Below are positions 1 through 52,500 of a stretch of DNA of 64,000 nucleotides, one piece after another. Origin of the DNA: a virus (taxonomy: Duplodnaviria > Caudoviricetes); IMG/VR virus record IMGVR_UViG_3300042542_005523; one strand, 5' to 3'. The notes beneath the pieces were generated by a model that searched no databases, was not told where the DNA came from, and worked only from the letters and a program-made list of their open reading frames with translations. The stretch's first letter is position 1. The number at the start of each line of letters is the position of its first letter. The position numbers and the translations under genes were made by a program.

Positions 1-45
1 TCTGGGCAGATTGAAAACACACAGGTTAAAATCCTGTACTGATTA
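1..45 (+). ncRNA. 3' part of a degenerate tRNA-Leu-framed element (copy 0, cut by window start)
   Basis: acagg-ttaaaat-cctgt-actgatt-a (21-45) is a decayed version of the T-arm/acceptor 3' strand acagg-ttcgaat-cctgt-cctgact-a of the four downstream copies. Confidence 0.55.
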
Positions 46-210
46 CAAAAATAAAACCTCAACAAATAAAGTTGTGAGTTGTATTGAAATAGCCAATTAT
101 AAGCCAACATAAAGCTGTTGGGTGCAGATGGAGTAATTAACCAGGAGCGCAGGCACTGATTGTGACGGTACAACAAATACCCCTCTGAGTTTGGGTTTTA
201 TTTTAAATAT

Positions 211-308
211 AGTTAGGTGGCGGAATGGTAGACGCACAAGACGGGCGATGCATTTAAAACAGAAATAAGCCTGGTCGGTTTTTACAGGTTCGAATCCTGT
301 CCTGACTG
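211..308 (+). ncRNA. tRNA-like element, copy 1 (no canonical anticodon arm)
   Basis: Acceptor agttagg/cctgact, tRNA-Leu-type D arm tggcggaatggtagacgc, T arm acagg-ttcgaat-cctgt; the middle does not form a 5-bp stem with a 7-nt loop. Confidence 0.8.
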
Positions 309-321
309 CTAAAAGAAAGTT

Positions 322-564
322 ATGAATAAAATAGAGAATTACAATTTTGACAAAAATGATTGGGCACATTTCCATGATGTTATTTTAGATGTGACTTGGA
401 ATGATGGTAAAGTGAATCTAAATCAAAAAGAAATGGAACAATTATTTTGGGAGTTACCAGAAGATATGAGAATTGATGCTCAAAAATATGGTATGAATGA
501 TACACCTTGGAGAGATAGTCTGCGGGTATGGTATGAACGAAATAAAATGGGTAAGACTGTTTAA
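322..564 (+). CDS. hypothetical phage protein (80 aa) between tRNA-like copies 1 and 2
   Basis: Clean ORF with normal composition, same strand as flanking elements. Confidence 0.7.
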   Translation: MNKIENYNFDKNDWAHFHDVILDVTWNDGKVNLNQKEMEQLFWELPEDMRIDAQKYGMNDTPWRDSLRVWYERNKMGKTV

Positions 565-579
565 TTGGTTATAAAACAT

Positions 580-698
580 AGTCAGGTGGCGGAATTGGTA
601 GACGCTGCTGTGGGGCGACACCACTCTTTTAAAAACAGCATAAGCTCTTGCAATGATGTACACATTGCAAGGTACAGGTTCAAGTCCTGTCCTGACTA
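580..698 (+). ncRNA. tRNA-like element, copy 2
   Basis: agtcagg/cctgact acceptor, D and T arms as copy 1; tgctg/cagca stem closes a 25-nt loop; long extra hairpin cttgcaatg/cattgcaag. Confidence 0.8.
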
Positions 699-779
699 CT
701 CTGGGCTCAGTAAAGCCTCTTATCGTAAGATAACGTAACTGAAGTGGATAACCTAGAAATAGGTGACGCTCCACTATGG
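699..779 (+). ncRNA. candidate structured RNA between copies 2 and 3
   Basis: Hairpins gggct/agcct (703-718), ttatc-GTAA-gataa (720-733), agtgga/tccact enclosing accta-GAAA-taggt (743-775); two GNRA loops; no ORF. Confidence 0.45.
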
Positions 780-859
780 AGTCAGGTGGCGCAATTGGAA
801 AACGCAACTCGCGGTGTACACAGAGGAGTGAATTACAGGTTCGAGTCCTGTCCTGACTA
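780..859 (+). ncRNA. tRNA-like element, copy 3 (shortest insert)
   Basis: agtcagg/cctgact acceptor, D arm gcgcaattggaaaacgc, T arm acagg-ttcgagt-cctgt; actc/gagt stem with 15-nt loop. Confidence 0.75.
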
Positions 860-1065
860 CACGTTCCGACTAATCATCGGATAGTATGCCTCATACGATG
901 AGAAGTGGTGTGATAGCCACAGAGGAGAGTTGAAGGTTCGTATATACAAACCTTCCAGTTGACTACTGACGTCGGTAAAACCCTTCACGAGGGGAGCAAG
1001 ACAGTCTATTCCTAACTCAGCAATGAGGACAGCCATATCACCTGTAAGTTGGATAAATTAGGGTG
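860..1065 (+). ncRNA. candidate multi-hairpin ncRNA of unknown family
   Basis: GC-richer, ORF-free; hairpins at 866-880, 890-902, 905-920, 932-955, 981-994 and ctca-GCAA-tgag at 1016-1027. Confidence 0.55.
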
Positions 1066-1074
1066 TTTTTATAT

Positions 1075-1237
1075 AGTCAGGTGGCGGAATTGGTAGACGC
1101 TATCGTACTCAAGTAAGGCAAAGCAATGTAGATGAAACGTCGTCGCATGGTGAGTTAACACCTAAAAGTCTTTGGACTTGAAATCCAAAAAACCTTGAGT
1201 ATGTTCTACGATACAGGTTCGAATCCTGTCCTGACTA
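1075..1237 (+). ncRNA. tRNA-like element, copy 4 (about 110-nt structured insert)
   Basis: Same acceptor/D/T frame; insert closed by atcgta/tacgat and tactcaag/cttgagta, with inner hairpins ggtg/cacc and tttgga-cttgaaa-tccaaa. Confidence 0.8.
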
Positions 1238-1262
1238 CAAAAATTAAAATCTAAGGTAATAA

Positions 1263-1544
1263 ATGAAATGCTACGAATGTAAACACAGAGGAAATGTAAT
1301 AGGCTCAGCTCATAGCAGCTGTGGTGTTATCAGAAGCACAGGTAGTGAGAAGGGACAGGAGTTAGAATTCATGCTGGCGATGGGGCAGGTCGAAATGAAA
1401 GATCAAGATGGTAACCCTATTGTTGATATAGACCCTCATGGTATTCAAAACGGATGGGCTGCTTGGCCTATAGATTTCGATCCAGTTTGGATAAGATCCT
1501 GTAAATTCTATACAGAAAAAGAGAAAACAGGTGAATTGAAATAA
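1263..1544 (+). CDS. hypothetical Cys-rich (possible Zn-binding) phage protein
   Basis: CxxC at N-terminus, HSSC, GWAAWPIDFDP...C at C-terminus. Confidence 0.75.
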   Translation: MKCYECKHRGNVIGSAHSSCGVIRSTGSEKGQELEFMLAMGQVEMKDQDGNPIVDIDPHGIQNGWAAWPIDFDPVWIRSCKFYTEKEKTGELK

Positions 1545-1553
1545 ATAACATAT

Positions 1554-1627
1554 GCTACCGTGGTGTAACTGAATAACACGTCTAACTACGGATTAGAAGA
1601 GCGAGGGTTTGAATCCTTCCGGTAGTA
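1554..1627 (+). tRNA. tRNA-Arg(ACG)
   Basis: Acceptor gctaccg/cggtagt, anticodon arm tctaa-ctACGga-ttaga, T arm gaggg-tttgaat-ccttc. Confidence 0.92.
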
Positions 1628-1667
1628 CAAAAAATAATCGAAATTAGAAGAAACAAAAAGATGTTCT

Positions 1668-1676
1668 GATATATAA
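1668..1676 (+). promoter_or_regulatory. putative late promoter GATATATA(A/G) upstream of the leader ORF
   Basis: Same motif lies shortly upstream of eight other starts (see findings). Confidence 0.5.
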
Positions 1677-1685
1677 TAACATAAT

Positions 1686-1778
1686 ATGAAAAACTTGATC
1701 CATACATCCTTACATTTATCCACCACGAGTACCACTTGTGATTCGGATTTATTGTGGAGGAGGCTAATGGATCAATAA
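1686..1778 (+). CDS. putative attenuator leader peptide MKNLIHTSLHLSTTSTTCDSDLLWRRLMDQ
   Basis: 30-codon ORF; residues 6-23 use only H,T,S,L,C,D, the amino acids of the downstream tRNAs; contains GGAGGCT (1759-1765) complementary to the terminator 5' arm. Confidence 0.7.
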   Translation: MKNLIHTSLHLSTTSTTCDSDLLWRRLMDQ

Positions 1779-1800
1779 TAATATTGAATTTTGATTCTGA

Positions 1801-1830
1801 AAAAGCCTCCCCTAAAAAGGAGGCTTTTTT
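1801..1830 (+). terminator. intrinsic terminator / attenuator hairpin in front of the tRNA operon
   Basis: aaaagcctcc-cctaaaaa-ggaggctttt followed by a T-tract (1825-1830). Confidence 0.85.
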
Positions 1831-1860
1831 ATTGGCTCTTTGATTTATTAGATTTAACAC

Positions 1861-1944
1861 GGAAGAGGAATCACAGCGGCCTGTGAGCTAGTCTTGAAAA
1901 CTATGCGTACCTCCGGGTATTGGGATCGACACCTACCTCTTCCG
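1861..1944 (+). tRNA. tRNA-Ser(UGA), 8/4 fold with 6-bp D stem
   Basis: ggaagagg/cctcttcc (8 bp), D stem tcacag-cggc-ctgtga, loop ctTGAaa, long variable arm, T stem tggg/ccta (4 bp), G73. Confidence 0.85.
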
Positions 1945-1952
1945 CTTTTTCC

Positions 1953-2028
1953 GGGGCCTGTGGTGTAATGGCTTGCATAACACACTGTCACTGTGTAGGT
2001 CGGGGTTCGAATCCCCCAGGTCCCGCCA
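1953..2028 (+). tRNA. tRNA-Asp(GUC), apparent 8/4 fold, CCA encoded
   Basis: ggggcctg/caggtccc (8 bp), anticodon arm acaca-ctGTCac-tgtgt, T arm gggg-ttcgaat-cccc, G73-CCA. Confidence 0.92.
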
Positions 2029-2030
2029 AT

Positions 2031-2118
2031 GGAAGATGATCCTAAACGGAGATAGGATCCGCCTGCTAAGCGAGATGTTCGGGTAAAACCGGATGAGGTT
2101 CGATCCCTCCGTCTTCCG
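2031..2118 (+). tRNA. tRNA-Ser(GCU), 8/4 fold
   Basis: ggaagatg/cgtcttcc (8 bp), loop ctGCTaa, long variable arm, T arm gagg-ttcgatc-cctc, G73. Confidence 0.88.
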
Positions 2119-2123
2119 CAAAC

Positions 2124-2196
2124 TCCAGAGTAGCTCAATTGGTAGAGCCCTTGTTTTGTAAACAAGTGGTTGTCGGTTCGATTCCGTCCTCTGGAT
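2124..2196 (+). tRNA. tRNA-Thr(UGU)
   Basis: tccagag/ctctgga, anticodon arm cttgt-ttTGTaa-acaag. Confidence 0.93.
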
Positions 2197-2201
2197 CTAA
2201 T

Positions 2202-2274
2202 GACACCGTGTCTGAATGGTTTAGGTCCAGGTCTGCAAAACCTTGGTACGTGGGTTCGAATCCCTCCGGTGTCT
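2202..2274 (+). tRNA. tRNA-Cys(GCA)
   Basis: gacaccg/cggtgtc, loop ctGCAaa, U73. Confidence 0.92.
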
Positions 2275-2280
2275 CTATAT

Positions 2281-2355
2281 GGTGTCTATAGTGTCAGCGG
2301 TATAGCACGACGGGTTGTGGTTCCGTTAGCACCAGTTCGAATCTGGTTAGACACA
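2281..2355 (+). tRNA. tRNA-His(GUG) with encoded G-1
   Basis: g-gtgtcta/tagacac, anticodon arm acggg-ttGTGgt-tccgt, T arm accag/ctggt; base 73 is A. Confidence 0.92.
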
Positions 2356-2362
2356 CTAATAA

Positions 2363-2447
2363 GCCCCGGTGGCGAAACAGGCTATACGCACCAGACTTAA
2401 GATCTGGCGATCAGTGAATCGTGTGGGTTCGAATCCCACCCGGGGTA
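2363..2447 (+). tRNA. tRNA-Leu(UAA)
   Basis: gccccgg/ccggggt, anticodon arm ccaga-ctTAAga-tctgg, long variable arm, A73. Confidence 0.93.
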
Positions 2448-2479
2448 CATAATTTTTTGTACTTTGATATATAGGTATT

Positions 2480-3079
2480 ATGATTGAAGGATACAAAAAA
2501 TACCAAAACGGATTTGTCAAAGACCCAGCTTCTTACTTGTTAAAAGAAGAAGAAAACGTTACTGCCAGCACAAGCCTGGTAACACCGAAAACTCTTAATG
2601 ATTTTTCGGAATCAATATCATCCTCCCTGAATGAGAGAATCGGTGACGAGTATGCTGCTCACTATTTCTATAGAAATGCTGCCAATTGGTGTAAAAATGT
2701 CAATTATAAAAATGCCACAGCATATTTTGAAGCTGAGGCTGCCAGCGAATTAGATCACGCTAAGGGATTACAAGACTACCTGACACAGTGGAACCTAATG
2801 CCTGCTATTCCTGCTGCTCCAACGCAGCATTCTTTTGAAAATCTAGCAGATATTATCAATAAGGCTTACGAGATAGAGTATGAGTTAATGCTTAAATACT
2901 CCGACAATCAAAAAGAGTTCTTAAATGATCACCCAGCAACTTTCAATTTTATTCAGAAATATGTTGATATACAGAATGAAGCTGTTGCTGAATACTCGGA
3001 TCTTTTAAATGCTCTTAATCTAGTGGACATCAACAATAGATTGGATGTCCTTTACTTCGAGAACAATTACTTCGGATAG
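2480..3079 (+). CDS. ferritin (non-haem type) with N-terminal extension
   Basis: DEYAAHYFY...FEAEAASELDHAKGL...YEIE...FIQKYVDIQNEAVAEY match the ferritin four-helix ferroxidase pattern. Confidence 0.85.
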   Translation: MIEGYKKYQNGFVKDPASYLLKEEENVTASTSLVTPKTLNDFSESISSSLNERIGDEYAAHYFYRNAANWCKNVNYKNATAYFEAEAASELDHAKGLQDYLTQWNLMPAIPAAPTQHSFENLADIINKAYEIEYELMLKYSDNQKEFLNDHPATFNFIQKYVDIQNEAVAEYSDLLNALNLVDINNRLDVLYFENNYFG

Positions 3080-3093
3080 TAATTAGTTACCCG

Positions 3094-3513
3094 TTACAAT
3101 TCTTTAGAAAAGGTTAGACCCGCATATCCTCTCGAGAAATCGAAAGAGAAGTTCGTGTTTGGTATGTAAACTGATGCTCCTAAATATTTACTATTTCCAG
3201 TTTCATCCTGCCAATCGTCTACGTATATCTCAATTCCCTTGTTTGCCAATAAGTCTGAAGCTTTGGATATGAAATCTGGATCATCTGGCTTAAACTTTAT
3301 GATCTGCGATTTTATTGACGAGTCCATTGATATCTTAGGTACGTTCAGCAGAGATTTTTTAAAATCAGAATTCATCTTTAGATAGTCGACTTTACCAAAT
3401 TTTGGAGCCTCTATCTTAAAATTAGTTAGAGACATTTTTGGATCTGGTTTAACTGTGGTAGACTGCCCACCCTCATTTATAAAATCTTCGAAAAGTTTTA
3501 TGTTTTTCATCAC
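3094..3513 (-). CDS. hypothetical protein with capsid-targeting-like N-terminus (MKNIKLFEDFINE)
   Basis: N-terminal motif resembles T4 internal-protein CTS; GATATATA upstream on minus strand (3527-3534). Confidence 0.7.
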   Translation of the reverse strand: MMKNIKLFEDFINEGGQSTTVKPDPKMSLTNFKIEAPKFGKVDYLKMNSDFKKSLLNVPKISMDSSIKSQIIKFKPDDPDFISKASDLLANKGIEIYVDDWQDETGNSKYLGASVYIPNTNFSFDFSRGYAGLTFSKEL

Positions 3514-3612
3514 TGATTTTTTATTTTATATATCGAGAGAATCCCTTTGTAAATGAATAAATAAAGGAGGACCCGGATTTTTAAGGGTTCTTTTCAGTAT
3601 AATAAAAGAACT

Positions 3613-4122
3613 ATGGAAAATCGACTTGACGGTAACTGGAGAAGACTAACAGATTCACAAGAAATTGAATTGCTGTCTTATATTAAATCCTGGATGGACG
3701 AAAATCCAGGACACAAGATCTATATTGGATGTGACTCCCAAAACAAGGGCAGATCTACAACTTATGCAACTGTCATAGTTCTACACTATCCTAGCGGTGG
3801 TGGACACGTCTTGTACAAAAAAGAGAAAATCGAAAAGGTGTCATCCAGTTTCGAGAGGCTCTGGAAAGAAGTAGAGCTTAGTGTGGAAATTGCTAATCTT
3901 TTAATAGATTCAGGTCTAGGTAAACCCGATTGCATAGACGTCGATCTAAATCCAGATCCGAGATACAACTCAAATCAATTACTAAGAGCAGCTGTTGGTC
4001 TTATAGAATCCATGGGGATTCAGGCTAGATATAAATCGAAATCGCCATGGGCTATTAGTATAGCTGACACTATGTGTAAAAGTAAGACGGGTAAGAAACC
4101 AAGAAAAAAACCAGTTAGATAA
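3613..4122 (+). CDS. RNase H-like YkuK family protein (DUF458)
   Basis: IYIGCDSQ...RLWKEVELS...IDVDLNPD...ADTMC pattern. Confidence 0.8.
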   Translation: MENRLDGNWRRLTDSQEIELLSYIKSWMDENPGHKIYIGCDSQNKGRSTTYATVIVLHYPSGGGHVLYKKEKIEKVSSSFERLWKEVELSVEIANLLIDSGLGKPDCIDVDLNPDPRYNSNQLLRAAVGLIESMGIQARYKSKSPWAISIADTMCKSKTGKKPRKKPVR

Positions 4123-4415
4123 TGCCTTGCAAAGTAGTACATTTTAAAAAGGATCCATATGATGTTTATGTAGGAAGAGGATCTAAATGGGGAAATCCAT
4201 TTTCTCATAAGGACGGGACAACGGCCCAATTTAAAGTTTCAAGTAGACAGGAAGCTATAGAAAGCTACAGAACATGGATAAAAACTCAGCCACGTCTGAT
4301 GGAAAGCTTACATGAGCTAAAGGACAAAACACTGGGTTGCTGGTGTAAGCCACAGGGCTGTCACGGTGATGTTCTAAAAGAATTAGCCGACTCGTTGGGT
4401 CGTAATTTATTCTAG
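4122..4415 (+). CDS. DUF4326 domain protein
   Basis: DVYVGRGSKWGNPF...LGCWCKPQGCHGDVL signature. Confidence 0.85.
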   Translation: MPCKVVHFKKDPYDVYVGRGSKWGNPFSHKDGTTAQFKVSSRQEAIESYRTWIKTQPRLMESLHELKDKTLGCWCKPQGCHGDVLKELADSLGRNLF

Positions 4416-4465
4416 TTACGAAATGATAATTTCTAGCGATATATAGATAAAATCACTAGATTATA

Positions 4466-5224
4466 ATGGCATATAGAATTCTTTTTCGTAGAGACACAGC
4501 AGCTAACTGGGCGACTAATAACCCTGTTTTATCTGCAGGTGAACCTGGATTTACAACAGACACAAACATATTTAAAATAGGAGATGGCGTTACCGCTTGG
4601 TCTTCCCTTCAGGATATAAATCCTGCAGGAGTAACCGGTCCAACTGGTGATGTTAATTTCGATAATATAGCATCCGACGTTATTGCTTCTGCCGATGCTA
4701 CTTATAATCTAGGAACTCAAACCTATCAATGGAATAACCTTTACGTTGCGGGCAGCATGTATCTTGGGGATTCCACTGTTACAGTATCTGGTTCTGGAAC
4801 TAATTTTATATTAGCAGGTGGAACAGGAAATCAGATAACTGGAAATCTTGAAATATCTGGTAATCTTACCGTAAACGGGACTACTAATATTAGACCGTAT
4901 AAGGTATATTCCGCTCTGGTTTCTCAGACGTCCTCTCTAGATCCAACAGATTTAGTTTTAGAAAGCACTTTCAATAGCACATTAACTTGGAACAGAGATT
5001 ACACGGGTAGATACACAGTTTCTTCTTCTACGGAGTTTACGATGGATAAGGTATTTGTGATGTTCTCACAGAATGCTGCTCTAGCCACTTCAACGACACC
5101 TTGTCATTATAATTGGCAGTGGTACGATTCAAGCACGCTGTATGTTGAATCTTTAAATGTTACGGGGGCTACAGCGGATAACCTTTTCTCTGCTACTTCG
5201 GTTGAGATTCGAGTTTATAATTAA
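4466..5224 (+). CDS. tail fibre-type protein with Mtd N-terminal domain
   Basis: ILFRRDTAANWATNNPVLSAGEPGFTTDTNIFKIGDGVTAW; short GVTGPTG collagen-like linker. Confidence 0.8.
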   Translation: MAYRILFRRDTAANWATNNPVLSAGEPGFTTDTNIFKIGDGVTAWSSLQDINPAGVTGPTGDVNFDNIASDVIASADATYNLGTQTYQWNNLYVAGSMYLGDSTVTVSGSGTNFILAGGTGNQITGNLEISGNLTVNGTTNIRPYKVYSALVSQTSSLDPTDLVLESTFNSTLTWNRDYTGRYTVSSSTEFTMDKVFVMFSQNAALATSTTPCHYNWQWYDSSTLYVESLNVTGATADNLFSATSVEIRVYN

Positions 5225-5260
5225 TTTCTCCGAAATTAACTTATTTGCTACGGAATTTTT

Positions 5261-7411
5261 ATGTATTATTGCGATAAGATTTTAATGGAGAAAGAATATA
5301 TGGAAAATTACGAGGAAGACTATGATCTAAACCTTTCGCCCTCTAACAAATACGGGGACGACGAAGACGATGACACACCAACAGGTGGTTTCAAATCATC
5401 GCAGAATAAATCATCAAAAACACCTGCACTAGACACCTATTCGAGGGATCTGACAGCTATGGCTGCTAGGGGTGAACTCGATCCTATTATAGGAAGAGAT
5501 CACGAGATCGAAAGGGTGTCCCAGATTCTATGTAGAAGAAAAAAGAACAATCCGGTTCTAATAGGAGAACCCGGTGTTGGTAAATCAGCAATTGCAGAAG
5601 GTATCGCCATCCGAATAGTTCAGAGAAAGGTTTCGAGGAATCTTCTTAATAAAAGGATCATTAGTCTGGACATTGCCTCGATTGTGGCCGGTACTAAATA
5701 CAGGGGTCAGTTTGAGGAAAGAATGAAGGCTATCATCGAGGAGCTAAGAGACGATCCTAGTGTGATCATCTTCATTGATGAAATCCACACTATGGTTGGA
5801 GCAGGTGGAGCATCCGGATCCCTTGACGCTTCGAATATGTTTAAGCCTCCTCTTGCTAGGGGTGAACTCCAATGCATAGGTGCCACAACCCTAAACGAAT
5901 ATAGACAGCATATTGAGAAGGATGGAGCTTTGGAAAGAAGATTCCAGAAAATCATCGTGGAAGCTCCAGATGCTGATACGACAATCAAGATCCTCAATAA
6001 CATCAAGTCTAAATACGAGGACCACCACAACGTTACTTACACAGAGGATGCTATTCTAAATTGTGTTAAGCTAACAGAGAGATACATCACCGATAGAAAT
6101 TTTCCAGATAAGGCACTAGATGCTTTAGACGAGGCAGGATCAAGAACACAGCTAACAGAAGTTAAAGTTCCTGATGCAATCAAGAACCTAGAGAAGAATC
6201 TTGATAATATTCACATTGATAAAAAAGACGCAGTCACTAAACAAGACTACGAAGCTGCTGCTAAATTCAGGGACTTAGAAAGAAAGATCAGAGTTAATTT
6301 GGAGCTGGAACAGAAAAACTGGGAGAGTAAACTTAAGGAAGATCGAAAAGTGGTTGATGGAGATAAGGTAGCCGAGGTAGTTTCGATGATGAGTGGGGTT
6401 CCTTTGAAAAAAGTAACACAGGAGGAGAATGAAAAACTTGCTAATCTTGGTCCGGATCTTAAATCTAAAGTGATAGGGCAGGATCCAGCTATCGAGAAAA
6501 TAGCAAAGGCTATTCTTCGTAATAGAATGGGACTAAAAGATCCTAATAAACCAATTGGCTCCTTTATATTCCTAGGTCCTACAGGGGTTGGAAAGACTCA
6601 ACTTGCCAAAGAATTGGCAAAACAATTATTCGGGGATGCCGATGCTTTAATTAGAGTCGATATGAGTGAGTATATGGAGAAGTTTAACTCAACTAAACTC
6701 ATTGGCGCACCTCCGGGCTATGTTGGTCACGAAGAAGGTGGGCAACTGACAGAAAAGGTTAGAAGAAAGCCATACTCGATAGTTCTTTTCGATGAGATTG
6801 AAAAAGCACACCCGGATATCTTTAATTCTTTGCTTCAAATTCTGGACGAAGGTTTAATAACCGACGGTCTCGGCAGAAAGATTAACTTCAAGAACACCTT
6901 GATTATTCTGACATCCAACGTGGGGCAGAGAAAACTAAATGAGTTTGGATCTAGCATTGGATTCTCTAAGGACAAGGCGGAGAAGGCAAAAATAGAAGGC
7001 GAGATCCTACTTAAGAAAGAGCTGGAAAAAACATTTTCTCCGGAGTTCTTAAACAGACTTGACGAGATCATCTACTTTGATCCGCTGGCTAAGGAAAACA
7101 TTATTAAGATCCTTGATGTCGAATTGGATATAATGAAACCTAGGTTTGAATCAATTGGTATTAAAATCAAGATAACTGACACATTAAAAGAGAAGATAGC
7201 TGAGGTTGGCTACGATCCTAAATTCGGTGCTAGACCACTAAAAAGAGTTCTTCAGAAATACGTAGAAGACACTGTTGCTGAAACAATGATCAATAATAAG
7301 ATCAATCCAGGCGATACCTTTACCCTTGACTTTGATCCTAAGAAGGAGGGAACGACTTCTACTCCGGTAAAAGTTAAAATAACCGCCAAAAAACAGAAAC
7401 CAACTGAGTAA
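5261..7411 (+). CDS. clpC: ClpC-type AAA+ unfoldase lacking the N-terminal Clp-repeat domain (start may be 5285)
   Basis: Walker A GEPGVGKS and GPTGVGKT, Walker B FIDEIH and LFDEIEKAH, GAPPGYVG, UVR-type M domain, IGF loop (SIGFS). Confidence 0.92.
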   Translation: MYYCDKILMEKEYMENYEEDYDLNLSPSNKYGDDEDDDTPTGGFKSSQNKSSKTPALDTYSRDLTAMAARGELDPIIGRDHEIERVSQILCRRKKNNPVLIGEPGVGKSAIAEGIAIRIVQRKVSRNLLNKRIISLDIASIVAGTKYRGQFEERMKAIIEELRDDPSVIIFIDEIHTMVGAGGASGSLDASNMFKPPLARGELQCIGATTLNEYRQHIEKDGALERRFQKIIVEAPDADTTIKILNNIKSKYEDHHNVTYTEDAILNCVKLTERYITDRNFPDKALDALDEAGSRTQLTEVKVPDAIKNLEKNLDNIHIDKKDAVTKQDYEAAAKFRDLERKIRVNLELEQKNWESKLKEDRKVVDGDKVAEVVSMMSGVPLKKVTQEENEKLANLGPDLKSKVIGQDPAIEKIAKAILRNRMGLKDPNKPIGSFIFLGPTGVGKTQLAKELAKQLFGDADALIRVDMSEYMEKFNSTKLIGAPPGYVGHEEGGQLTEKVRRKPYSIVLFDEIEKAHPDIFNSLLQILDEGLITDGLGRKINFKNTLIILTSNVGQRKLNEFGSSIGFSKDKAEKAKIEGEILLKKELEKTFSPEFLNRLDEIIYFDPLAKENIIKILDVELDIMKPRFESIGIKIKITDTLKEKIAEVGYDPKFGARPLKRVLQKYVEDTVAETMINNKINPGDTFTLDFDPKKEGTTSTPVKVKITAKKQKPTE

Positions 7412-43527: not shown

Positions 43528-46500
43528 ATGCTTACGGATAACCTGTTTAGTGGAATTGTAGATTTTACCGACGGTAGCTTAAGCAGCTTAGTTGGTATCA
43601 CAGGTAGTGCGACATACGGGTCCAGTGTGATAACTGGAGTTGATAGCACGATCATACCTGGATTAACTGCTGGCCTTTCGGTTAGAGCACTACCAGAAGG
43701 AATTCTCAATCCCTCTACAACGATAGTTTCTTTGGGCTCTAACACGGTAGAGTTTTCTAACCCGGTAGGTTACACCGGATCCGCTAATTTTTATATAGAA
43801 CTAAGCAGCGGCAATTATCTTTTAAACAACGCTTTATTTGTTGACGTTAACAACATCTATAATGTTGGTGATATACCAGACTATCAAATAGGAGCCACTG
43901 GAGGATTGGTAATTTCTCCTTTTGCGATCTATACTCAGGGAAGATATAACGATCAGAAGAATCTTAAAGCCATATATGAAAAGTACATAATAACAAAAGT
44001 ACTTTCAAGGAACACAGTAACAAATAGATTTAGCGCTATAGTTACTTGGGGTTTTTCAGGATCTGCACCGACGAGTGTTAATACTGGACAGACAGTTCTA
44101 CCTATAACTCAGCTATCCCCGAATAATTTATTGCCTCCCATAATAGACTATAGAGCATTTTCTTATAAGAATCTTCCGGAAGGACAGCCATTTAATCAGG
44201 AGATATTAAAGGTCTTAGATTCTGGAGGAAGCGGAGGAAGCGGAGGAAGCGGAACTTCAGGAACAAGTGGTAGTTCAGGATCTTCAGGAACTTCAGGAAC
44301 AAGTGGTAGTTCAGGCACTAGCGGCACAGACGGTTCATCGGGAACTAGCGGTACAGATGGTTCAAGTGGAACTTCAGGAACTAGCGGTACGGATGGTTCA
44401 TCAGGAACTTCAGGAACATCAGGATCCAGTGGTTCTTCAGGTGAATCGGGTTCAAGTGGTTCATCAGGTGAATCGGGAACTTCAGGATCCAGTGGTTCAT
44501 CAGGTGAATCAGGTTCAAGTGGTTCTTCAGGTGAATCAGGAACTTCAGGAACTTCAGGATCGAGTGGAACATCGGGATCCAGTGGAACATCAGGTGAATC
44601 GGGATCCAGTGGAACATCAGGTGAATCAGGAACTTCAGGAACTTCAGGATCGAGTGGAACTTCGGGATCCAGTGGAACATCAGGTGAATCAGGAACAAGT
44701 GGTTCTTCAGGTGAATCAGGAACTTCAGGATCGAGTGGAACTTCGGGATCCAGTGGAACATCAGGTGAATCAGGAACAAGTGGTTCTTCAGGTGAATCAG
44801 GAACTTCAGGATCGAGTGGAACATCGGGATCCAGTGGAACATCAGGTGAATCAGGAACTTCAGGAACTTCAGGATCAAGTGGAACATCAGGATCCAGTGG
44901 TTCTTCAGGTGAATCGGGAACAAGTGGTTCTTCAGGGACATCTGGTTCAAGTGGTAGTGCGGGTTCATCTGGTTCAACGGGTACTTCAGGTTCTTCTGGA
45001 ACAGGAGGTTCATCAGGTAGCTCTGGTTCAAGTGGAAGTTCAGGTAGTACAGGTTCCTCAGGTTCAAGTGGTAGTTCAGGAACATCTGGCTCAACAGGTA
45101 CTTCAGGAACTTCAGGTTCAAGTGGGTCTTCAGGTAGTTCAGGAAGTAGCGGAACATCTGGTTCTAGTGGAAGTGTTGGAACTTCTGGTACATCAGGTTC
45201 ATCAGGTAGTGTAGGTACTAGTGGAACATCAGGTACATCAGGTACATCAGGTAGTGTAGGTACTAGTGGTACATCTGGTAGTTCAGGTTCTAGCGGTTCG
45301 TCAGGTAATAGTGGAAGTTCAGGTACAAGTGGAACATCAGGTACTTCTGGCTCTAGTGGAAGTGTTGGAACTTCTGGTACATCAGGAAGTTCAGGTTCTT
45401 CAGGTACTAGTGGTAGTTCTGGCTCTACTGGCACATCGGGTACTAGTGGCTCATCAGGAAGTGTAGGTACAAGTGGAAGTTCAGGTTCTAGCGGTTCATC
45501 AGGAAGTTCAGGTATTAGTGGTTCTTCAGGTTCTAGCGGAAGCGCTGGAAGCTCAGGAAGTACAGGTACATCAGGAACTAGTGGAACTTCAGGTAGTTCT
45601 GGTTCAGTAGGAACTTCAGGTACATCAGGTAGTTCTGGTTTATCGGGAAGCAGTGGTTCTTCAGGAAGTACTGGAACATCAGGAAGTACTGGAACTTCAG
45701 GTTCAAGTGGTAGTGTTGGGACTAGTGGTACATCGGGTTCAAGTGGTTCTTCAGGAAGTGTTGGTACGTCTGGTTCATCTGGAAGTGCAGGTACATCAGG
45801 AACTTCAGGGTCATCAGGAAGTTCAGGTACAAGCGGAACATCAGGAACTGGAGGAACTTCAGGTTCAAGTGGTAGTGTTGGGACTAGTGGTACATCAGGA
45901 ACAAGTGGTTCTTCAGGTACATCAGGTAGTTCAGGTTCAAGTGGTTCATCGGGAAGTTCAGGTTCAAGTGGTTCATCGGGTACATCAGGTAGTACTGGTA
46001 CTAGTGGTAGTAGTGGAACAAGCGGAACGTCGGGTTCATCAGGTTCTGCGGGAAGTAGTGGTTCATCAGGTAGTGTTGGAACATCTGGTTCAAGTGGTAG
46101 TTCAGGTAGTTATGGTTCATCAGGTACATCTGGCTCAAGTGGTAGCTCTGGTTCAACAGGTTCGTCAGGTAGTAGTGGTATAACTGGGTCTTCAGGTACG
46201 AGTGGTAGTTCTGGCACATCAGGTTCATCTGGTAGTTCAGGTTCTTCAGGTAGTACTGGTTCATCAGGAACTAGCGGAACATCAGGAACATCAGGTACAA
46301 GTGGTAGTTCAGGTTCTACAGGAACATCGGGTTCTACAGGAACATCGGGTTCATCAGGTAGTAGTGGCTCAAGTGGAAGTTCAGGATTGACAGGTTCATC
46401 AGGAACATCGGGTTCATCAGGGACATCGGGTTCATCAGGTAGTTCTGGTTCAAGTGGTAGTAGCGGAAGTACAGGGTCTTCGGGCACAAGTGGTAGTTCT

Positions 46501-49500
46501 GGTACATCAGGTTCATCAGGAAGTTCAGGTTCATCGGGTTCTAGCGGTAGTGTTGGAACTTCGGGAACAAGTGGTTCAAGTGGAAGTTCAGGTTCTTCAG
46601 GAAGTGTAGGAACATCAGGTACAAGTGGTAGTTCAGGTTCGTCTGGCTCAAGTGGAAATACAGGTTCAAGTGGAACGAGTGGTTCATCAGGTACATCTGG
46701 CTCAAGTGGTAGTTCAGGTTCGTCTGGCTCAAGTGGTTCAAGTGGAACGAGTGGTTCATCAGGTACATCTGGCTCAAGTGGTAGTTCAGGTTCGTCTGGC
46801 TCAAGTGGTTCAAGTGGAAGTTCAGGTTCTTCAGGAAGTGTAGGAACATCAGGTACAAGTGGTAGTTCAGGTTCTTCAGGTAGTTCAGGTGTTAATGGTT
46901 CTTCAGGGACTAGTGGTAGTTCGGGAACATCTGGTTCTTCAGGAAGTTCGGGTTCATCAGGTTCTAGTGGTAGTTCAGGAACATCTGGCTCAAGCGGGTC
47001 TTCTGGTTCAAGTGGAAGTACTGGTTCTTCAGGAAGTGCAGGTACATCGGGTAGTGTAGGAACTAGCGGTAGTTCTGGTTCATCTGGTTCTTCAGGTAGT
47101 ACTGGCTCAAGTGGTACTTCAGGTTCATCAGGTAGTGTAGGTACTAGTGGTTCATCAGGTAGTTCTGGTTCAAGTGGTAGTAGCGGAAGTACAGGGTCTT
47201 CTGGTACAAGTGGGAACTCAGGAACATCTGGTACAAGCGGAAGTACAGGGTCTTCTGGTACAAGCGGTTCATCAGGTAGTACTGGGTCAAGTGGAAGTTC
47301 AGGAAGTAGTGGTAGTGTAGGAACAAGTGGTTCTTCAGGGACATCTGGCTCAACAGGTACTTCAGGAACATCAGGTTCAAGTGGGTCTTCAGGTAGTTCG
47401 GGTTCATCAGGAAGTTCAGGTACAAGCGGAACATCAGGTTCAGTAGGAACAAGTGGTTCATCGGGAAGTTCAGGGTCAACAGGAACTTCAGGTTCAAGTG
47501 GGTCTTCAGGTAGTTCAGGAAGTAGCGGAACATCTGGTTCTAGTGGAAGTGTTGGAACTTCTGGCACATCAGGAACAAGTGGTTCATCGGGAAGTTCTGG
47601 TTCTGCCGGTACAAGTGGAAGTGTAGGAACAAGTGGTACTTCAGGTTCATCTGGCTCAAGTGGAAGTTCAGGTTCAACAGGTAGTTCAGGTACTAGCGGT
47701 TCATCTGGAAGTTCTGGTTCTGCAGGTACAAGTGGAAGTTCTGGTTCTTCAGGTAGTACGGGTTCAAGAGGAACTAGCGGAACATCAGGAAGTTCTGGTT
47801 CTGTTGGAACTAGTGGAACGTCTGGTTCAGTAGGAACTAGCGGAACATCTGGAACAAGTGGTTCATCAGGTTCTAGCGGTAGCGCTGGAAGCTCAGGAAG
47901 TGTAGGTACTTCAGGTACTAGTGGAAGCTCAGGAAGTGTAGGAACATCTGGTTCAAGTGGTACTACTGGTACCTCAGGAACATCAGGTAGTTCAGGTTCA
48001 TCTGGTAGTGTTGGTACATCAGGAACTTCGGGTACTAGCGGAACATCAGGTTCTAGCGGTTCGTCAGGAAATAGTGGAAGTTCAGGTACAAGTGGAACAT
48101 CGGGTTCAACTGGGTCTTCAGGCTCAAGTGGTAGTTCGGGAAGTGTTGGTACATCAGGAAGTAGTGGTTCTTCAGGTTCTAGTGGTAGTACTGGAAGCTC
48201 AGGAAGTACAGGTACATCGGGTTCAAGTGGAACTTCAGGTTCTTCAGGTACTAGCGGAACATCGGGAACTAGTGGTAGTTCAGGTTCAGTTGGTACATCA
48301 GGAACTTCGGGTTCAAGTGGTAGTTCTGGTTCTACTGGTACATCGGGTACTAGCGGTTCTTCAGGTTCTAGCGGTAGCGCTGGAAGCTCAGGAAGTACAG
48401 GTACATCAGGTACTAGTGGTAGTTCTGGTAGCGTAGGAACATCGGGTACATCAGGTAGTTCTGGTTCATCGGGTAGTTCTGGCTCAACAGGCTCGTCAGG
48501 TAGTAGTGGAACTTCTGGTTCATCTGGCTCAAGCGGAAGTGTTGGAACATCTGGTTCGTCAGGAAGTACTGGCTCAAGTGGTTCATCAGGAAGTACAGGA
48601 ACATCAGGTAGTGCTGGTTCTTCTGGCTCAAGTGGTAGTTCAGGTTCAAGTGGAAGTACTGGAACATCAGGTAGTAGTGGAACATCAGGTTCATCAGGTT
48701 CTAGCGGTAGTACTGGAAGCTCAGGAACGTCAGGTTCTGTAGGTACAAGCGGGACATCAGGAACTTCGGGAAGTACTGGTTCTAGTGGAAGTTCAGGAAC
48801 AAGTGGTTCATCTGGAAGTTCAGGGTCATCAGGAAGTACTGGTACATCAGGAACATCTGGTTCTTCAGGTAGTTCAGGTTCTAGCGGAAGTTCAGGTTCA
48901 AGTGGAACTAGTGGTAGTTCAGGAAGTTCTGGTTCATCGGGTAGTACAGGTTCTTCAGGTAGTTCAGGTTCTAGCGGAAGTTCAGGTTCAAGTGGAACTA
49001 GTGGTAGTTCAGGAAGTTCTGGTTCATCGGGTAGTACAGGTACTTCAGGAAGCTCAGGTTCAAGTGGAACTAGTGGTTCTTCAGGGTCTAGCGGTTCATC
49101 GGGTTCTAGTGGAAGTTCAGGGTCATCTGGTAGTACAGGTTCAAGAGGAACTAGCGGTTCTTCAGGAACATCAGGTACTAGTGGTACATCAGGAAGTGTT
49201 GGGACAAGTGGTACGTCAGGAAGTACTGGAACATCAGGTTCAAGTGGTAGTGTAGGTACATCGGGAACTTCAGGTTCATCTGGAAGTACGGGTAGTTCAG
49301 GTACTAGCGGTAGTAGTGGTTCATCAGGAAGTTCTGGCTCGACTGGTAGTTCAGGAAGTTCTGGAACTTCAGGTTCTAGTGGTAGTTCGGGAACATCAGG
49401 GTCATCAGGTAGCGTAGGTACTAGCGGTTCTTCTGGTTCAAGTGGAAGTTCAGGTTCTAGCGGAAGTACAGGGTCAAGCGGAACTAGTGGAAGTTCAGGT

Positions 49501-52500
49501 TCATCTGGAAGTGTAGGAACAAGTGGAACCTCAGGTTCAGTAGGTACAAGTGGTACATCAGGAAGTTCAGGCTCAAGTGGTAGTACGGGTTCATCTGGTA
49601 CTAGCGGCTCTTCGGGAAGTACTGGGTCATCTGGAAGTTCAGGTTCAACAGGAACTAGCGGTTCTTCAGGAACATCAGGTAGTAGCGGTTCTAGTGGTAG
49701 TGCTGGTAGTTCAGGTTCTGCGGGTACAAGTGGAAGTGTAGGAACATCTGGGACTTCTGGTTCAAGTGGGTCATCAGGTTCTAGTGGGAGTGTTGGAACT
49801 TCTGGTACATCAGGAACAAGTGGTTCGTCAGGTTCTAGCGGTAGTGCTGGAAGCTCAGGAAGTACTGGTTCATCAGGTTCTGCGGGAAGTGCTGGTACAT
49901 CAGGGGTTAATGGTTCTTCAGGAACATCAGGTTCTGCTGGCTCAAGTGGAAGTTCAGGTTCTTCAGGTAGTGTTGGTACTTCTGGTACAAGCGGAACTTC
50001 AGGTTCATCAGGTAGTGCTGGCTCGTCGGGGTCTAGCGGTTCTGTTGGTACTTCAGGTAGTAGTGGAACATCTGGAAGCTCTGGCTCAAGTGGTAGTGCG
50101 GGGTCATCAGGGAGTACTGGTACAAGTGGAAGTTCGGGTTCAACTGGTACTTCAGGTAGTTCAGGAACATCTGGTACTTCAGGTTCAAGTGGAAGTAGTG
50201 GCTCATCAGGTTCTTCAGGAAGTGCTGGTACAAGTGGAACATCTGGCTCATCAGGTTCAACGGGTAGTTCAGGAAGTGCTGGTACAAGTGGAACATCAGG
50301 TTCTAGTGGAAGTAGTGGTAGTTCAGGGTCATCTGGTTCTGCGGGTACATCAGGAAGTAGTGGAAGTACAGGTTCTTCTGGTTCAAGTGGGACATCAGGT
50401 TCAACGGGTAGTTCAGGAAGTAGTGGAACAAGTGGTTCATCTGGTACTTCAGGTTCATCTGGCTCAAGTGGTAGTACGGGTTCTTCAGGAAGCTCAGGCT
50501 CAAGCGGAAGTTCTGGTTCAACAGGTTCTAGAGGAACAAGTGGAACTTCTGGTTCGTCAGGAACTAGCGGAACGTCAGGAACATCTGGTTCATCAGGAAG
50601 TTCGGGTTCAAGTGGTTCGTCTGGGTCTACAGGAACAAGTGGTTCGGCTGGTACATCAGGAAGTAGTGGAAGTTCAGGGTCTAGTGGTAGTGCTGGAAGT
50701 TCAGGGTCTAGTGGTAGTGCTGGAAGTTCAGGTTCAGTAGGTACAAGTGGTTCTTCAGGAACATCAGGTTCTAGTGGGTCTTCAGGAAGTTCTGGTAGTT
50801 CAGGTTCAGCTGGTACAAGTGGAAGTGTAGGAACATCTGGTTCTTCAGGAAGTTCTGGTTCAAGTGGTTCATCAGGAAGTTCAGGTTCTACAGGTTCAAG
50901 AGGAACATCGGGTACTAGTGGTACATCAGGTAGTAGTGGTTCTAGTGGTAGTGCTGGTACTTCAGGTTCAGTAGGGACAAGTGGCTCTTCAGGAAGTGCT
51001 GGTAGTTCAGGTTCATCGGGTAGTAGCGGAACATCAGGTTCGTCAGGAACAAGTGGTTCGTCAGGGTCTAGCGGTAGTACTGGAAGTTCAGGAAGTTCTG
51101 GCTCTGTTGGTACATCAGGTAGTTCGGGGTCATCCGGAAGCTCAGGAAGTAGTGGTTCATCAGGTACATCGGGAGCTAACGGAAGTTCAGGAACATCTGG
51201 GTCTAGTGGAAGTTCAGGAAGTAGTGGTTCATCAGGCTCAAGTGGGTCTGCTGGTACTTCAGGTGCTAACGGAAGTTCAGGAACAAGTGGTTCGTCAGGT
51301 TCTAGCGGAAGTGCTGGAAGCTCAGGAAGTTCGGGAACATCAGGTAGTAGTGGTAGTTCAGGGTCCTCAGGGAGTACAGGTTCAAGAGGAACAAGCGGTT
51401 CTTCAGGTACATCAGGAACCTCAGGAAGTGCTGGTTCATCAGGTTCTTCAGGTTCAAGTGGAAGTGTAGGAACAAGTGGTAGTTCTGGTTCTGCGGGTTC
51501 TAGTGGAACTTCAGGTTCAACAGGAACATCAGGTAGTTCAGGTTCAAGTGGAGTAACTGGTTCTTCAGGTACTAGCGGTTCTTCAGGAAGTTCTGGGTCA
51601 TCAGGGTCTAGTGGAAGTGTTGGAACTAGCGGTTCATCTGGTACAAGTGGTTCATCAGGTAGTTCAGGAAGTTCGGGTTCAAGCGGTAGTAGTGGAAGTT
51701 CAGGGTCAACAGGTTCAAGAGGAACATCAGGAAGTACTGGTACAAGTGGTTCGGCTGGTACCTCAGGTTCAAGTGGAAGTTCAGGTAGTAGTGGATTAAG
51801 TGGTGTTGATGGTACTAATGGAACATCTGGAAGTTCTGGTTCAAGTGGTGTTAACGGAAGTTCAGGAAGTAGTGGTACATCTGGTTCTAGTGGAAGTTCT
51901 GGCTCTGCTGGTAGTTCAGGTTCTGCAGGTACAAGTGGAAGTGTTGGAACATCAGGTTCTTCAGGGAGTTCTGGTTCAAGTGGTTCTTCAGGAAGTTCTG
52001 GCTCAACAGGTTCAAGAGGAACAAGTGGTTCTTCAGGGACTTCAGGAAGTTCAGGTTCAAGTGGAAGTAGTGGAAGTTCAGGGTCATCAGGTGTTAGTGG
52101 TTCTTCAGGGACATCAGGTTCAAGTGGAAGTTCAGGTTCTTCTGGTTCAAGTGGAAGTTCAGGAACATCTGGCTCAACAGGAACTTCAGGGTCATCAGGT
52201 TCTAGTGGAAGTACTGGTACTTCAGGTAGTTCAGGAACATCAGGGTCTAGCGGTAGTTCGGGGTCATCTGGAAGCTCAGGAAGTAGTGGTTCATCAGGTA
52301 CATCGGGAGCTAACGGAAGTTCAGGTACAAGTGGTTCTTCAGGAAGTAGTGGTAGTTCAGGGTCATCTGGCTCTGCTGGTACATCAGGTGCTAATGGAAG
52401 TTCAGGAACATCTGGTTCAAGTGGTAGTGCTGGAAGCTCAGGAAGTAGTGGTAGTTCTGGTTCCGTTGGAACTTCAGGTTCTAGCGGTTCATCAGGAAGT

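Follow-up and report, generated by a model that had tools for sequence, protein, structure and literature searches.

Leader-peptide attenuation is a textbook mode of control for amino-acid operons. In the enterobacterial amino-acid attenuators, a short leader ORF rich in regulatory codons (trpL, hisL, leuL, pheL, thrL, and the multivalent leaders of ilvGMEDA and ilvBN) is followed by an intrinsic terminator immediately 5′ of the regulated genes. Four RNA segments form 1:2, 2:3, and 3:4 pairings; a ribosome terminating at the leader stop codon masks segment 2, and a stalled ribosome leads to read-through. To our knowledge, the leader-peptide attenuators described so far all regulate amino-acid biosynthetic enzymes or synthetases. 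Transcription of bacterial and phage tRNA genes is, as far as we know, controlled at promoters and globally, and our literature search found no publication on leader-peptide attenuation of tRNA genes.

We analyzed 64,000 nt of DNA from a freshwater phage (the window), in which a short leader ORF of this kind and an intrinsic terminator stand directly ahead of a tRNA gene block; the four segments with their three pairings are predicted from folding, and the effects of a terminating or stalled ribosome are modeled. We put the probability at roughly 0.75 that this unit is a ribosome-mediated (leader-peptide) transcription attenuator with the tRNA gene block as its output. On this model, tRNAs would probably be produced only when ribosomes slow on the leader codons. 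The original prediction had proposed such an attenuator, and four lines of computation support it: the tracking of tRNA sets by leaders, the recurrence of the design, the folding of the RNA, and the lack of an internal promoter-like site. Because its output would be seven tRNA genes, we file the unit outside the described attenuator families.

The leader ORF and the tRNA array

The unit opens with a promoter-like motif, GATATATAA, on the plus strand at 1668–1676, 10 nt 5′ of the leader ATG. This site had been proposed as a putative promoter. The motif was found at that position and is recurrent: the form GATATATA(A), seen at 1668, occurs seven times in the window, with all seven copies 6–32 nt 5′ of an ORF start and in the sense orientation, and we infer a promoter role for it. 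The next motif after the array, at 2466, is the ferritin-like gene’s own (gene at 2480–3079). The stretch from the terminator to the first tRNA gene (1832–1860), where a separate tRNA promoter might be sought, contains no promoter-like site.

The leader ORF (1686–1778, plus strand) starts with an ATG at 1686 and comprises 30 codons and a stop codon (1776–1778), as an independent ORF check bore out. Its codons 6–23 (1701–1754, plus strand) specify only Ser, Asp, Thr, Cys, His, and Leu, with none of the six missing, in line with what had been claimed for this regulatory run. No other run of this kind in any of the six frames of the 64-kb window equals these 18 residues; the runner-up has 11 and lies antisense to a Ser/Thr repeat gene. 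With 22 of the 61 sense codons assigned to the six amino acids, and with their share of 0.356 of the residues in the phage’s long ORFs, the per-start chance of 0.36^18 given originally is a fair one. Over the whole peptide, 21 of 29 residues belong to the set (expected fraction 0.356, binomial P = 6e-5), and the ORF ranked first among the 688 small ORFs of the window for its match to the array’s amino acids.

The four Leu codons of the run are all TTA or TTG, which also agrees with the earlier claim; TTR accounts for 41% of the Leu codons in phage genes, giving a chance of about 0.03 for four out of four. Four of the 18 codons in the run (two TCC and two ACC) could be read by the UGA and UGU anticodons only through four-way wobble. 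By codon-usage count, TCC and ACC are the rarest Ser and Thr codons of this phage, and they may be decoded by host GGA and GGU tRNAs. Both Arg codons of the leader are AGG and are not decoded by the upstream tRNA-Arg(ACG) (1554–1628, plus strand; ARAGORN, with an Rfam score of 55.7 bits), which lies 5′ of the unit and is not controlled by it. The leader peptide matched no Pfam or PHROG family. No Shine–Dalgarno sequence precedes the ORF, so its translation enters our model as an assumption. Strain variants differ in the leader by three changes, and one of them, a Thr-to-Ile replacement in L040, exits the amino-acid set; these variants are too alike to serve as a test of constraint or selection on the leader.

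Seven tRNA genes had been claimed downstream, all on the plus strand. Six are canonical by ARAGORN and Rfam: tRNA-Asp(GUC) at 1953–2028, tRNA-Ser(GCU) at 2031–2119 (called by ARAGORN), tRNA-Thr(UGU) at 2124–2197, tRNA-Cys(GCA) at 2202–2275, tRNA-His(GUG) at 2282–2356, and the unit’s last gene, tRNA-Leu(UAA), at 2363–2448 (the other five called by both programs). The first gene of the array, a noncanonical tRNA-Ser(UGA)-like gene at 1861–1945, did not pass at the standard threshold and was called only by ARAGORN under the relaxed setting (-ps80). It has no Rfam match and an unusual T-loop, and it is kept in the uncultured phage LR756502.1 (81%) and in Cellulophaga phage phi4:1 with compensatory pairs.

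The terminator and alternative RNA structures

The terminator, originally placed at 1801–1830, was recovered as a strong hairpin with a folded extent of 1800–1831 on the plus strand: a 13-bp stem (1800–1812 with 1819–1831), an 8-nt loop, and then a T-run (ΔG −18.1 kcal/mol). It lies 29 nt 5′ of the first tRNA gene, and its sequence is unchanged in six strain variants. A simple terminator scan did not call it on the plus strand, probably because the T-run is consumed by the A/T extension of the stem. In an Rfam search of positions 1–6000 of the window, no non-tRNA family was significant; the matches to Phe_leader, STnc230, STnc370, and BTnc231 were far under their cut-offs, rest on the terminator hairpin, and were rejected.

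The predicted alternative structures involve four plus-strand segments. Segment 1 (1695–1714) is the 5′ strand of a 1:2 anti-antiterminator hairpin in the minimum free energy (MFE) folds. Segment 2 (1753–1775), the partner of either segment 1 or segment 3, contains GGAGGCT at 1759–1765 and reaches the stop codon. Segment 3 (1791–1812) joins an inner antiterminator strand (1791–1797) to the terminator 5′ arm (1800–1812), and segment 4 (1819–1831) is the terminator 3′ arm. GGAGGCT at 1759–1765 and again at 1819–1825, with its complement AGCCTCC at 1804–1810, stands exactly where it had been noted; such a 7-mer copy of the arm arose in 29 of 20,000 shuffles of 1686–1799 (P about 0.0015). The 1:2 hairpin proposed at first, 1723–1728 with 1752–1757, is possible as a pairing, but folding predicts a different one, 1695–1703 with 1767–1775 and 1707–1714 with 1753–1761 in the MFE structure.

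The antiterminator consists of 1759–1765 paired with 1804–1810 plus 1769–1775 paired with 1791–1797. With the shuffle test restricted to the part 3′ of a stalled ribosome, the fold of 1755–1813 has a ΔG of −19.9 kcal/mol vs. −7.6 ± 2.7 kcal/mol for shuffled sequences (z = −4.6), a value reached by none of 2,000 shuffles. Applied to the entire leader, a shuffle test had no discriminating power, since the native 1:2 hairpin competes. The MFE structure at full length combines 1:2 with 3:4 pairing, and the region as a whole folds better than shuffles (z = −5.1).

We then modeled a ribosome as a 28-nt mask and computed the probability of the antiterminator core for each A-site codon. The predicted probability is at least 0.97 with codons 2–21 in the A site; it drops to 0.38 when codon 22 is reached and is 0.00 at codon 23 and beyond, the stop codon included. 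In the model, the end of the regulatory run coincides with the point at which stalling would no longer be productive. In RNA that lacks the terminator 3′ arm and carries no ribosome, the antiterminator (2:3) already has a probability of 0.76; termination without translation would therefore be a matter of kinetics and is not predicted thermodynamically.

Leaders and tRNA sets in this genome and in other phages

A second unit with a promoter motif of the type at 1668, a leader, and a terminator lies 1.7–3.7 kb upstream of the window in the same genome, on a contig (L041) that overlaps the window by 6,544 nt with complete identity. Its 49-codon leader stands ahead of 13 tRNA genes for 11 amino acids (Phe, Trp, Val, Glu, Lys, Asn, Gly, Gly, Gln, Ile, Pro, Ala, and Ile). 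Its own set provides 39 of the 48 residues of this second leader and the window’s set 5 of 48; conversely, the window leader draws 21 of its 29 residues from its own set and 5 of 29 from the second unit’s set (Fisher P = 6.6e-9 for leader by set, two units of one genome). The second leader ranked first of 737 small ORFs for the match to its own set, and its ORF 3′ end likewise pairs with the terminator 5′ arm.

Three unrelated phages that carry different tRNA sets, LR756502.1, phi4:1, and Caulobacter phage phiCbK, have the design as well. LR756502.1 has seven units, among them a leader with seven Gln codons (Gln7) preceding four tRNA-Gln genes and a Ser/Arg-rich leader preceding Arg and Ser tRNAs. 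Combined over its units, the Fisher P is 8e-13, with three units weak by the whole-peptide score (P = 0.1–0.3). When the seven LR756502.1 units and that of the window were treated as eight leader–set pairings, none of the 14,833 derangements matched the observed score. All six LR756502.1 leaders that were tested have an ORF 3′ end that pairs with the terminator 5′ arm, with z scores, taken together with the second leader of our genome, of −2.5 to −5.7. In phi4:1, which has three units, one leader, QRLHLQELEQP, precedes tRNAs for Pro, Glu, Gln, His, Leu, Leu, and Arg. The phiCbK terminators are already in its RefSeq annotation. Whether leader composition tracks tRNA content had been named in advance as the decisive check, and it does so within this genome and in the three other phages. 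The design explains several phage mini-ORFs, namely the 49-residue product on L041, phi4:1 gp075, and phiCbK gp335; phi4:1 gp076, by contrast, seems to be an erroneous gene call that overlies a tRNA-Ser(UGA)-like gene.

The unit also behaves as a cassette. In three relatives (L030–L032), the promoter, the leader, the terminator, and all seven tRNAs are absent together, and the tRNA-Arg and the ferritin gene are retained. The relatives found via the ferritin-like gene (L001–L014) have no tRNAs near it, and the tRNA loci on parent contigs of such relatives (G002–G006) contain no leader units. Small ORFs and promoters occur in the tRNA region of phage T5, but matched leader–terminator units do not. 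The exact terminator sequence had no match in viral contigs, and homologs of the 93-residue upstream gene (at most 45% identity) occur in other genomic contexts. Degenerate matches to the promoter plus leader start, in 52 viral and 41 metagenome contigs, were set aside as chance, tRNAs being absent there.

Proposed mechanism, alternatives, and known systems

The proposed mechanism presupposes the promoter, translation of the leader, its coupling to transcription, the efficiency of termination, and the physiological trigger. Transcription would start at the GATATATAA motif, and the 30-codon leader would be translated just behind the polymerase. A ribosome running smoothly to the stop codon would cover segment 2, so that segments 3 and 4 would pair, the terminator would form, and transcription would stop before the tRNA genes. 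If tRNAs for Ser, Asp, Thr, Cys, His, or Leu were scarce or uncharged, a ribosome would be held at any of codons 6–21, masking segment 1 and leaving segment 2 free; the resulting 2:3 pairing would block the terminator, and the polymerase would enter the seven tRNA genes. New tRNAs would speed up decoding of the leader and turn the unit off, giving negative feedback on tRNA supply.

The leader-to-tRNA match indicates a functional link without specifying its mechanism, and the leader might sense decoding with an output other than classical termination control. Depending on where the ribosome stands, the tRNA precursor could differ in stability or processing (via access of RNase E or RNase P), or Rho could gain or lose access; or the hairpin could mainly end transcripts of the upstream genes, with the leader acting otherwise. 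Being symmetrical, the hairpin could serve the minus strand as well, and the antiterminator is favored in the truncated RNA even without a ribosome. We nevertheless judge such an output unlikely. All examined units of this genome and of LR756502.1 have a copy of the terminator 3′ arm, or an equivalent pairing, in the ORF 3′ end, well beyond shuffles; pairing of this sort is a specific signature of terminator/antiterminator competition, and the stop codon falls within segment 2 in each unit examined.

The good folding of the region could also reflect a 145-nt small RNA running from promoter to terminator, or the ORF could encode a small functional peptide, with the tRNAs expressed constitutively by leakage through the terminator or from an unrecognized promoter. 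The weak sub-threshold Rfam matches, which involve sRNAs of enterobacteria and one of Bacteroides, lie across the terminator, and the MKNL N terminus is shared with two LR756502.1 leaders. These Rfam matches are, however, far under their gathering scores, the Pfam and PHROG searches returned no family, and the peptides of the different units are unrelated apart from the correspondence of each to its own tRNA set, a match that neither a peptide nor an sRNA role predicts; we regard this explanation as improbable. Plain coincidence, a chance small ORF beside the ordinary terminator of an upstream operon, deserves thought since the match was noticed post hoc and small ORFs are plentiful in AT-rich phage DNA. 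It appears very improbable given that the ORF that ranks first of the window’s small ORFs also sits exactly 5′ of the array, that the second leader ranks first for a nearly disjoint set, that the 7-mer arm copy is seldom reproduced by shuffling, and that three further phages have the same design.

If the attenuator reading is correct, phages can gauge the infected cell’s decoding of their genes codon by codon and replenish only those tRNAs that run short. This would bear on why phages carry tRNAs, on host defenses that cleave tRNA, and on adaptation to hosts with differing codon usage, and the unit would be a compact natural sensor that reads the availability of several tRNAs at once. Cultured phage–host pairs with the design, phiCbK with Caulobacter and phi4:1 with Cellulophaga baltica, are open to direct tests. 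A broader and more doubtful extension, offered tentatively, is that phage tRNA arrays are closed-loop, codon-resolved homeostats, each block coming on only when decoding of exactly its codons fails. Such failure could arise from tRNA cleavage by anticodon nucleases, host tRNA decay during infection, tRNA mismatch in a new host, or the codon demand of the phage’s own 4,015-residue Ser/Gly/Thr protein. Cassettes of promoter, leader, terminator, and array would then travel between phages as self-regulating units.

Among known systems, pheST, the operon for phenylalanyl-tRNA synthetase in Escherichia coli with its pheM leader, similarly places a component of the translation apparatus under attenuation; there, the output is a protein (the synthetase) and one amino acid is involved, whereas here, the outputs are tRNAs of many species. 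T-box riboswitches (RF00230) likewise choose between terminator and antiterminator according to the state of a specific tRNA. They bind the uncharged tRNA directly, through the specifier codon and the T-box bulge, and need no translation, whereas in our unit, a translating ribosome would read the tRNA pool; Rfam gave no T-box match at E ≤ 1 within 1–6000. Control of tRNA and rRNA operons by ppGpp/DksA, Fis, and growth rate also makes tRNA transcription follow translational demand, but it acts at initiation, globally, without codon or tRNA specificity, and with neither leader ORF nor terminator. The enterobacterial amino-acid attenuators share no sequence similarity with the unit (Phe_leader scores 27.7 bits against a 55-bit cut-off in Rfam, on the terminator only). 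Their outputs are enzymes, whereas the output here is tRNA genes, in a phage setting. Their leaders devote runs of codons to one to three amino acids; here, six are interleaved, and 11 in the sister unit. Also unlike in those attenuators, the molecules sensed here would be the unit’s own products, a direct feedback on tRNA supply.

The tRNA unit and its surroundings

The stretch is found in lake-water metagenomes from at least 10 studies, and its source is an abundant freshwater-lake phage. On re-checking the sequence, we found every coordinate and string of the original prediction to be correct. A 93-residue gene (1263-1544) and a tRNA-Arg(ACG) gene (1554-1628) are followed by the motif GATATATAA (1668-1676), a 30-codon leader ORF with an ATG start (1686-1778), a 13-bp hairpin with a T-run (1800-1831), a tRNA-Ser(UGA)-like gene (1861-1945), and six canonical tRNAs (Asp GUC, Ser GCU, Thr UGU, Cys GCA, His GUG, and Leu UAA; 1953-2448). 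Beyond them lie a second motif copy (2466) and a ferritin-like gene (2480-3079). From sequence analysis and modeling, the most likely interpretation, at roughly three in four, is the one originally predicted: a leader-peptide attenuator that would control transcription into the tRNA genes.

The Ser-like gene was absent from default ARAGORN and Rfam calls and was called by ARAGORN only at a relaxed threshold. It is conserved beside Ser tRNAs in two unrelated phages, and alignment revealed compensatory changes along with an acceptor stem, a UGA anticodon arm, a variable arm that is long, and a short T arm. We treated it as a non-canonical tRNA. Five tRNA-like elements lie further upstream (1-45, partial; 211-308; 580-698; 780-859; 1075-1240), each preceded by ATATAG, with near-identical acceptor, D, and T arms, long and differing middles, and total lengths of 80-165 nt. 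In Rfam, three scored 37-43 bits and a fourth 25. ARAGORN called none of the five by default, and its intron mode gave inconsistent identities, such as, for 1075-1238, Leu(CAA) with an 85-nt intron. These elements may represent tRNAs with introns or with some other unusual architecture (Leu, Tyr, or Met?).

The pattern GATATATA(A/G) has seven copies in the window (1668, 2466, 3534 on the minus strand, 4438, 28624, 30997, and 42084), and the frequency of GATATATA there is not above chance. Each of the seven is in sense orientation and sits 6-32 nt 5′ of an ORF start; the motif thus acts like an expression signal. This placement probably marks a phage promoter element, which would yield transcripts with very short 5′ UTRs; a −35 consensus was not evident. 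A sigma-70-like factor is encoded nearby in relatives.

Three relatives (L030-L032) share the upstream gene with the window at 80% protein identity and retain the tRNA-Arg and ferritin genes; the entire block of promoter motif, leader, terminator, and seven tRNAs is missing. The unit is gained or lost in one piece. The presence/absence junction (window 1605-1629 and 2425-2449 versus L030 1501-1525) lies where tRNA-Arg and tRNA-Leu resemble each other, in the T arm and acceptor at their 3′ ends, which suggests recombination between tRNA genes as the route. In a strain variant (L040 5858-5987, equivalent to window 2120-2201), the 74-nt tRNA-Thr(UGU) gives way to an unrelated 86-nt tRNA, also with a UGU anticodon, that has a long variable arm; a further 32 nt are inserted, and Thr13 of the strain's leader is changed to Ile.

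Leader composition and predicted folding

Residues 6-23 of the leader consist only of Ser, Asp, Thr, Cys, His, and Leu, the amino acids of the unit's own tRNAs. This is the longest such run in the six frames of the 64-kb window; the second longest, 11 residues, lies antisense to a Ser/Thr repeat gene. Over the whole peptide, 21/29 residues belong to this set (P = 6e-5, for an expected fraction of 0.356 from the phage's own protein composition), and the leader ranked first for this enrichment among 688 candidates, namely all window ATG-ORFs of 8-60 codons on either strand. The run includes two TCC and two ACC codons that fall outside the standard reading range of the array's anticodons, which weakens a strict codon-level match. 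Strain variants differed minimally, by three leader substitutions, and their terminators were invariant.

The free full-length RNA was predicted to fold into a large hairpin within the ORF (1695-1703 with 1767-1775, and 1707-1714 with 1753-1761) plus the terminator (dG −18.1 kcal/mol). Without the terminator 3′ arm, the lowest-energy fold was a two-tier antiterminator (1759-1765 with 1804-1810, and 1769-1775 with 1791-1797) at −19.9 kcal/mol, versus −7.6 ± 2.7 in shuffles and reached by 0/2000 of them. A 7-mer copy of the terminator 3′ arm within the ORF recurred in 29/20000 shuffles. We modeled translation by masking 28 nt around the ribosome at every A-site position. The antiterminator core had a probability of at least 0.97 with the A site at codons 2-21; this fell to 0.38 at codon 22 and to 0.00 for every position from codon 23 to the stop. 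The regulatory run therefore occupies the part of the ORF where a stall is predicted to give read-through and ends where it is not. A weak point of the model is that the ribosome-free truncated RNA already favored the antiterminator (probability 0.76); termination of untranslated transcripts would therefore need to be kinetic.

Leader composition tracks tRNA content

A contig of the same genome (L041) is identical to the window throughout a 6544-nt overlap and reaches 3.7 kb further upstream. There we found a second unit (L041 1897-3501, 1.7-3.7 kb upstream of the window start), in which the motif CTGATATATAA, the same as in the window, precedes a 49-codon leader ORF (1908-2057), a terminator (2081-2114), and 13 tRNAs (Phe, Trp, Val, Glu, Lys, Asn, Gly, Gly, Gln, Ile, Pro, Ala, and Ile). 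The second leader has 39/48 residues in its own eleven-amino-acid set and 5/48 in that of the present unit, whose leader has 21/29 in its own set and 5/29 in the other. This reciprocal match (two leaders by two sets, Fisher's exact P = 6.6e-9) shows leader composition tracking tRNA content, the relation that the original prediction had singled out as decisive. The second leader ranked first of 737 small ORFs for its own set, and its ORF repeats its own terminator's 3′ arm (antiterminator fold z −5.7). A gene caller had earlier listed it as an unannotated 49-residue product. The 13-tRNA array was absent within 5 kb upstream in L040.

The uncultured 642-kb phage LR756502.1 (L051), found solely through the likeness of its Ser-like tRNA to the window's, also carries leader and terminator units before tRNA sub-arrays. 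Seven consecutive Gln codons precede four tRNA-Gln genes, a Ser/Arg-rich leader precedes Arg, Ser ×4, and Arg, a Lys/His/Phe/Trp-rich leader precedes His, Phe, Trp, and Lys tRNAs, and a Tyr/Glu leader precedes Glu and Tyr tRNAs. The leader-to-set match had a combined P of 8e-13, although whole-peptide scores were weak for three of the seven units taken singly. When these seven units and the window's own were re-paired, 0/14833 derangements reached the observed score. In all six terminator-bearing leaders of LR756502.1, the 3′ end together with the stop codon pairs with the terminator 5′ arm beyond shuffles. Within a larger leader-gated array, three tRNA-Lys genes are immediately preceded by a mini-ORF of 9 codons, four of them Lys (L051 5591-5620). 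Next to it come a 7-bp hairpin, which lacks a T-run, and a TATAAT-like box; the mini-ORF may belong to another kind of control element, nested in the array.

Two cultured phages share the design. Cellulophaga phage phi4:1 (L142) has three units with near-disjoint tRNA sets, each mirrored by its leader, and in Caulobacter phage phiCbK the terminators are already annotated in RefSeq. The phi4:1 gene gp075 (L142 2734-2853) is the second tRNA unit's leader ORF, whose true start is probably later than the annotated one. Its gp076 (4862-4963) overlaps a homologue of the tRNA-Ser(UGA)-like gene at window 1861-1945 and is therefore probably a spurious CDS. Searching by pattern for more relatives gave chance matches only, and the design is not universal, being absent from T5 and several related contigs.

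Possible triggers and relation to known attenuators

When codons for Ser, Asp, Thr, Cys, His, or Leu are read slowly, transcription would continue into the tRNA genes, and fast decoding would shut it off; tRNA supply would in this way be under feedback control. Starvation for amino acids, host tRNAs that are lost or cleaved, and a host tRNA pool that matches poorly are possible triggers, and all would work. One local clue hints at demand: a giant ORF (43528-55575, plus strand) with 9-nt periodic repeats encodes a 4015-residue protein of 44% Ser, 31% Gly, and 12% Thr. Its coding relies mainly on TCA, AGT, TCT, ACA, and ACT, for which the array supplies Ser(UGA), Ser(GCU), and Thr(UGU) tRNAs; together with GGT and GGA, these codons match the phage's own Ser, Thr, and Gly tRNAs. 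Expression of this protein would place an extreme demand on exactly the array's Ser and Thr species.

A full-text literature search found no description of leader-peptide attenuation of tRNA genes. The phiCbK genome paper mentions neither leaders nor attenuation and reports tRNAs as the only RNA elements (PMC3556154). The placement of the run in the present unit matches the stall-dependent read-through logic of the trp attenuator. The class of mechanism is known, but not its combination with a tRNA-gene target, a multi-amino-acid leader, and the proposed direct feedback.
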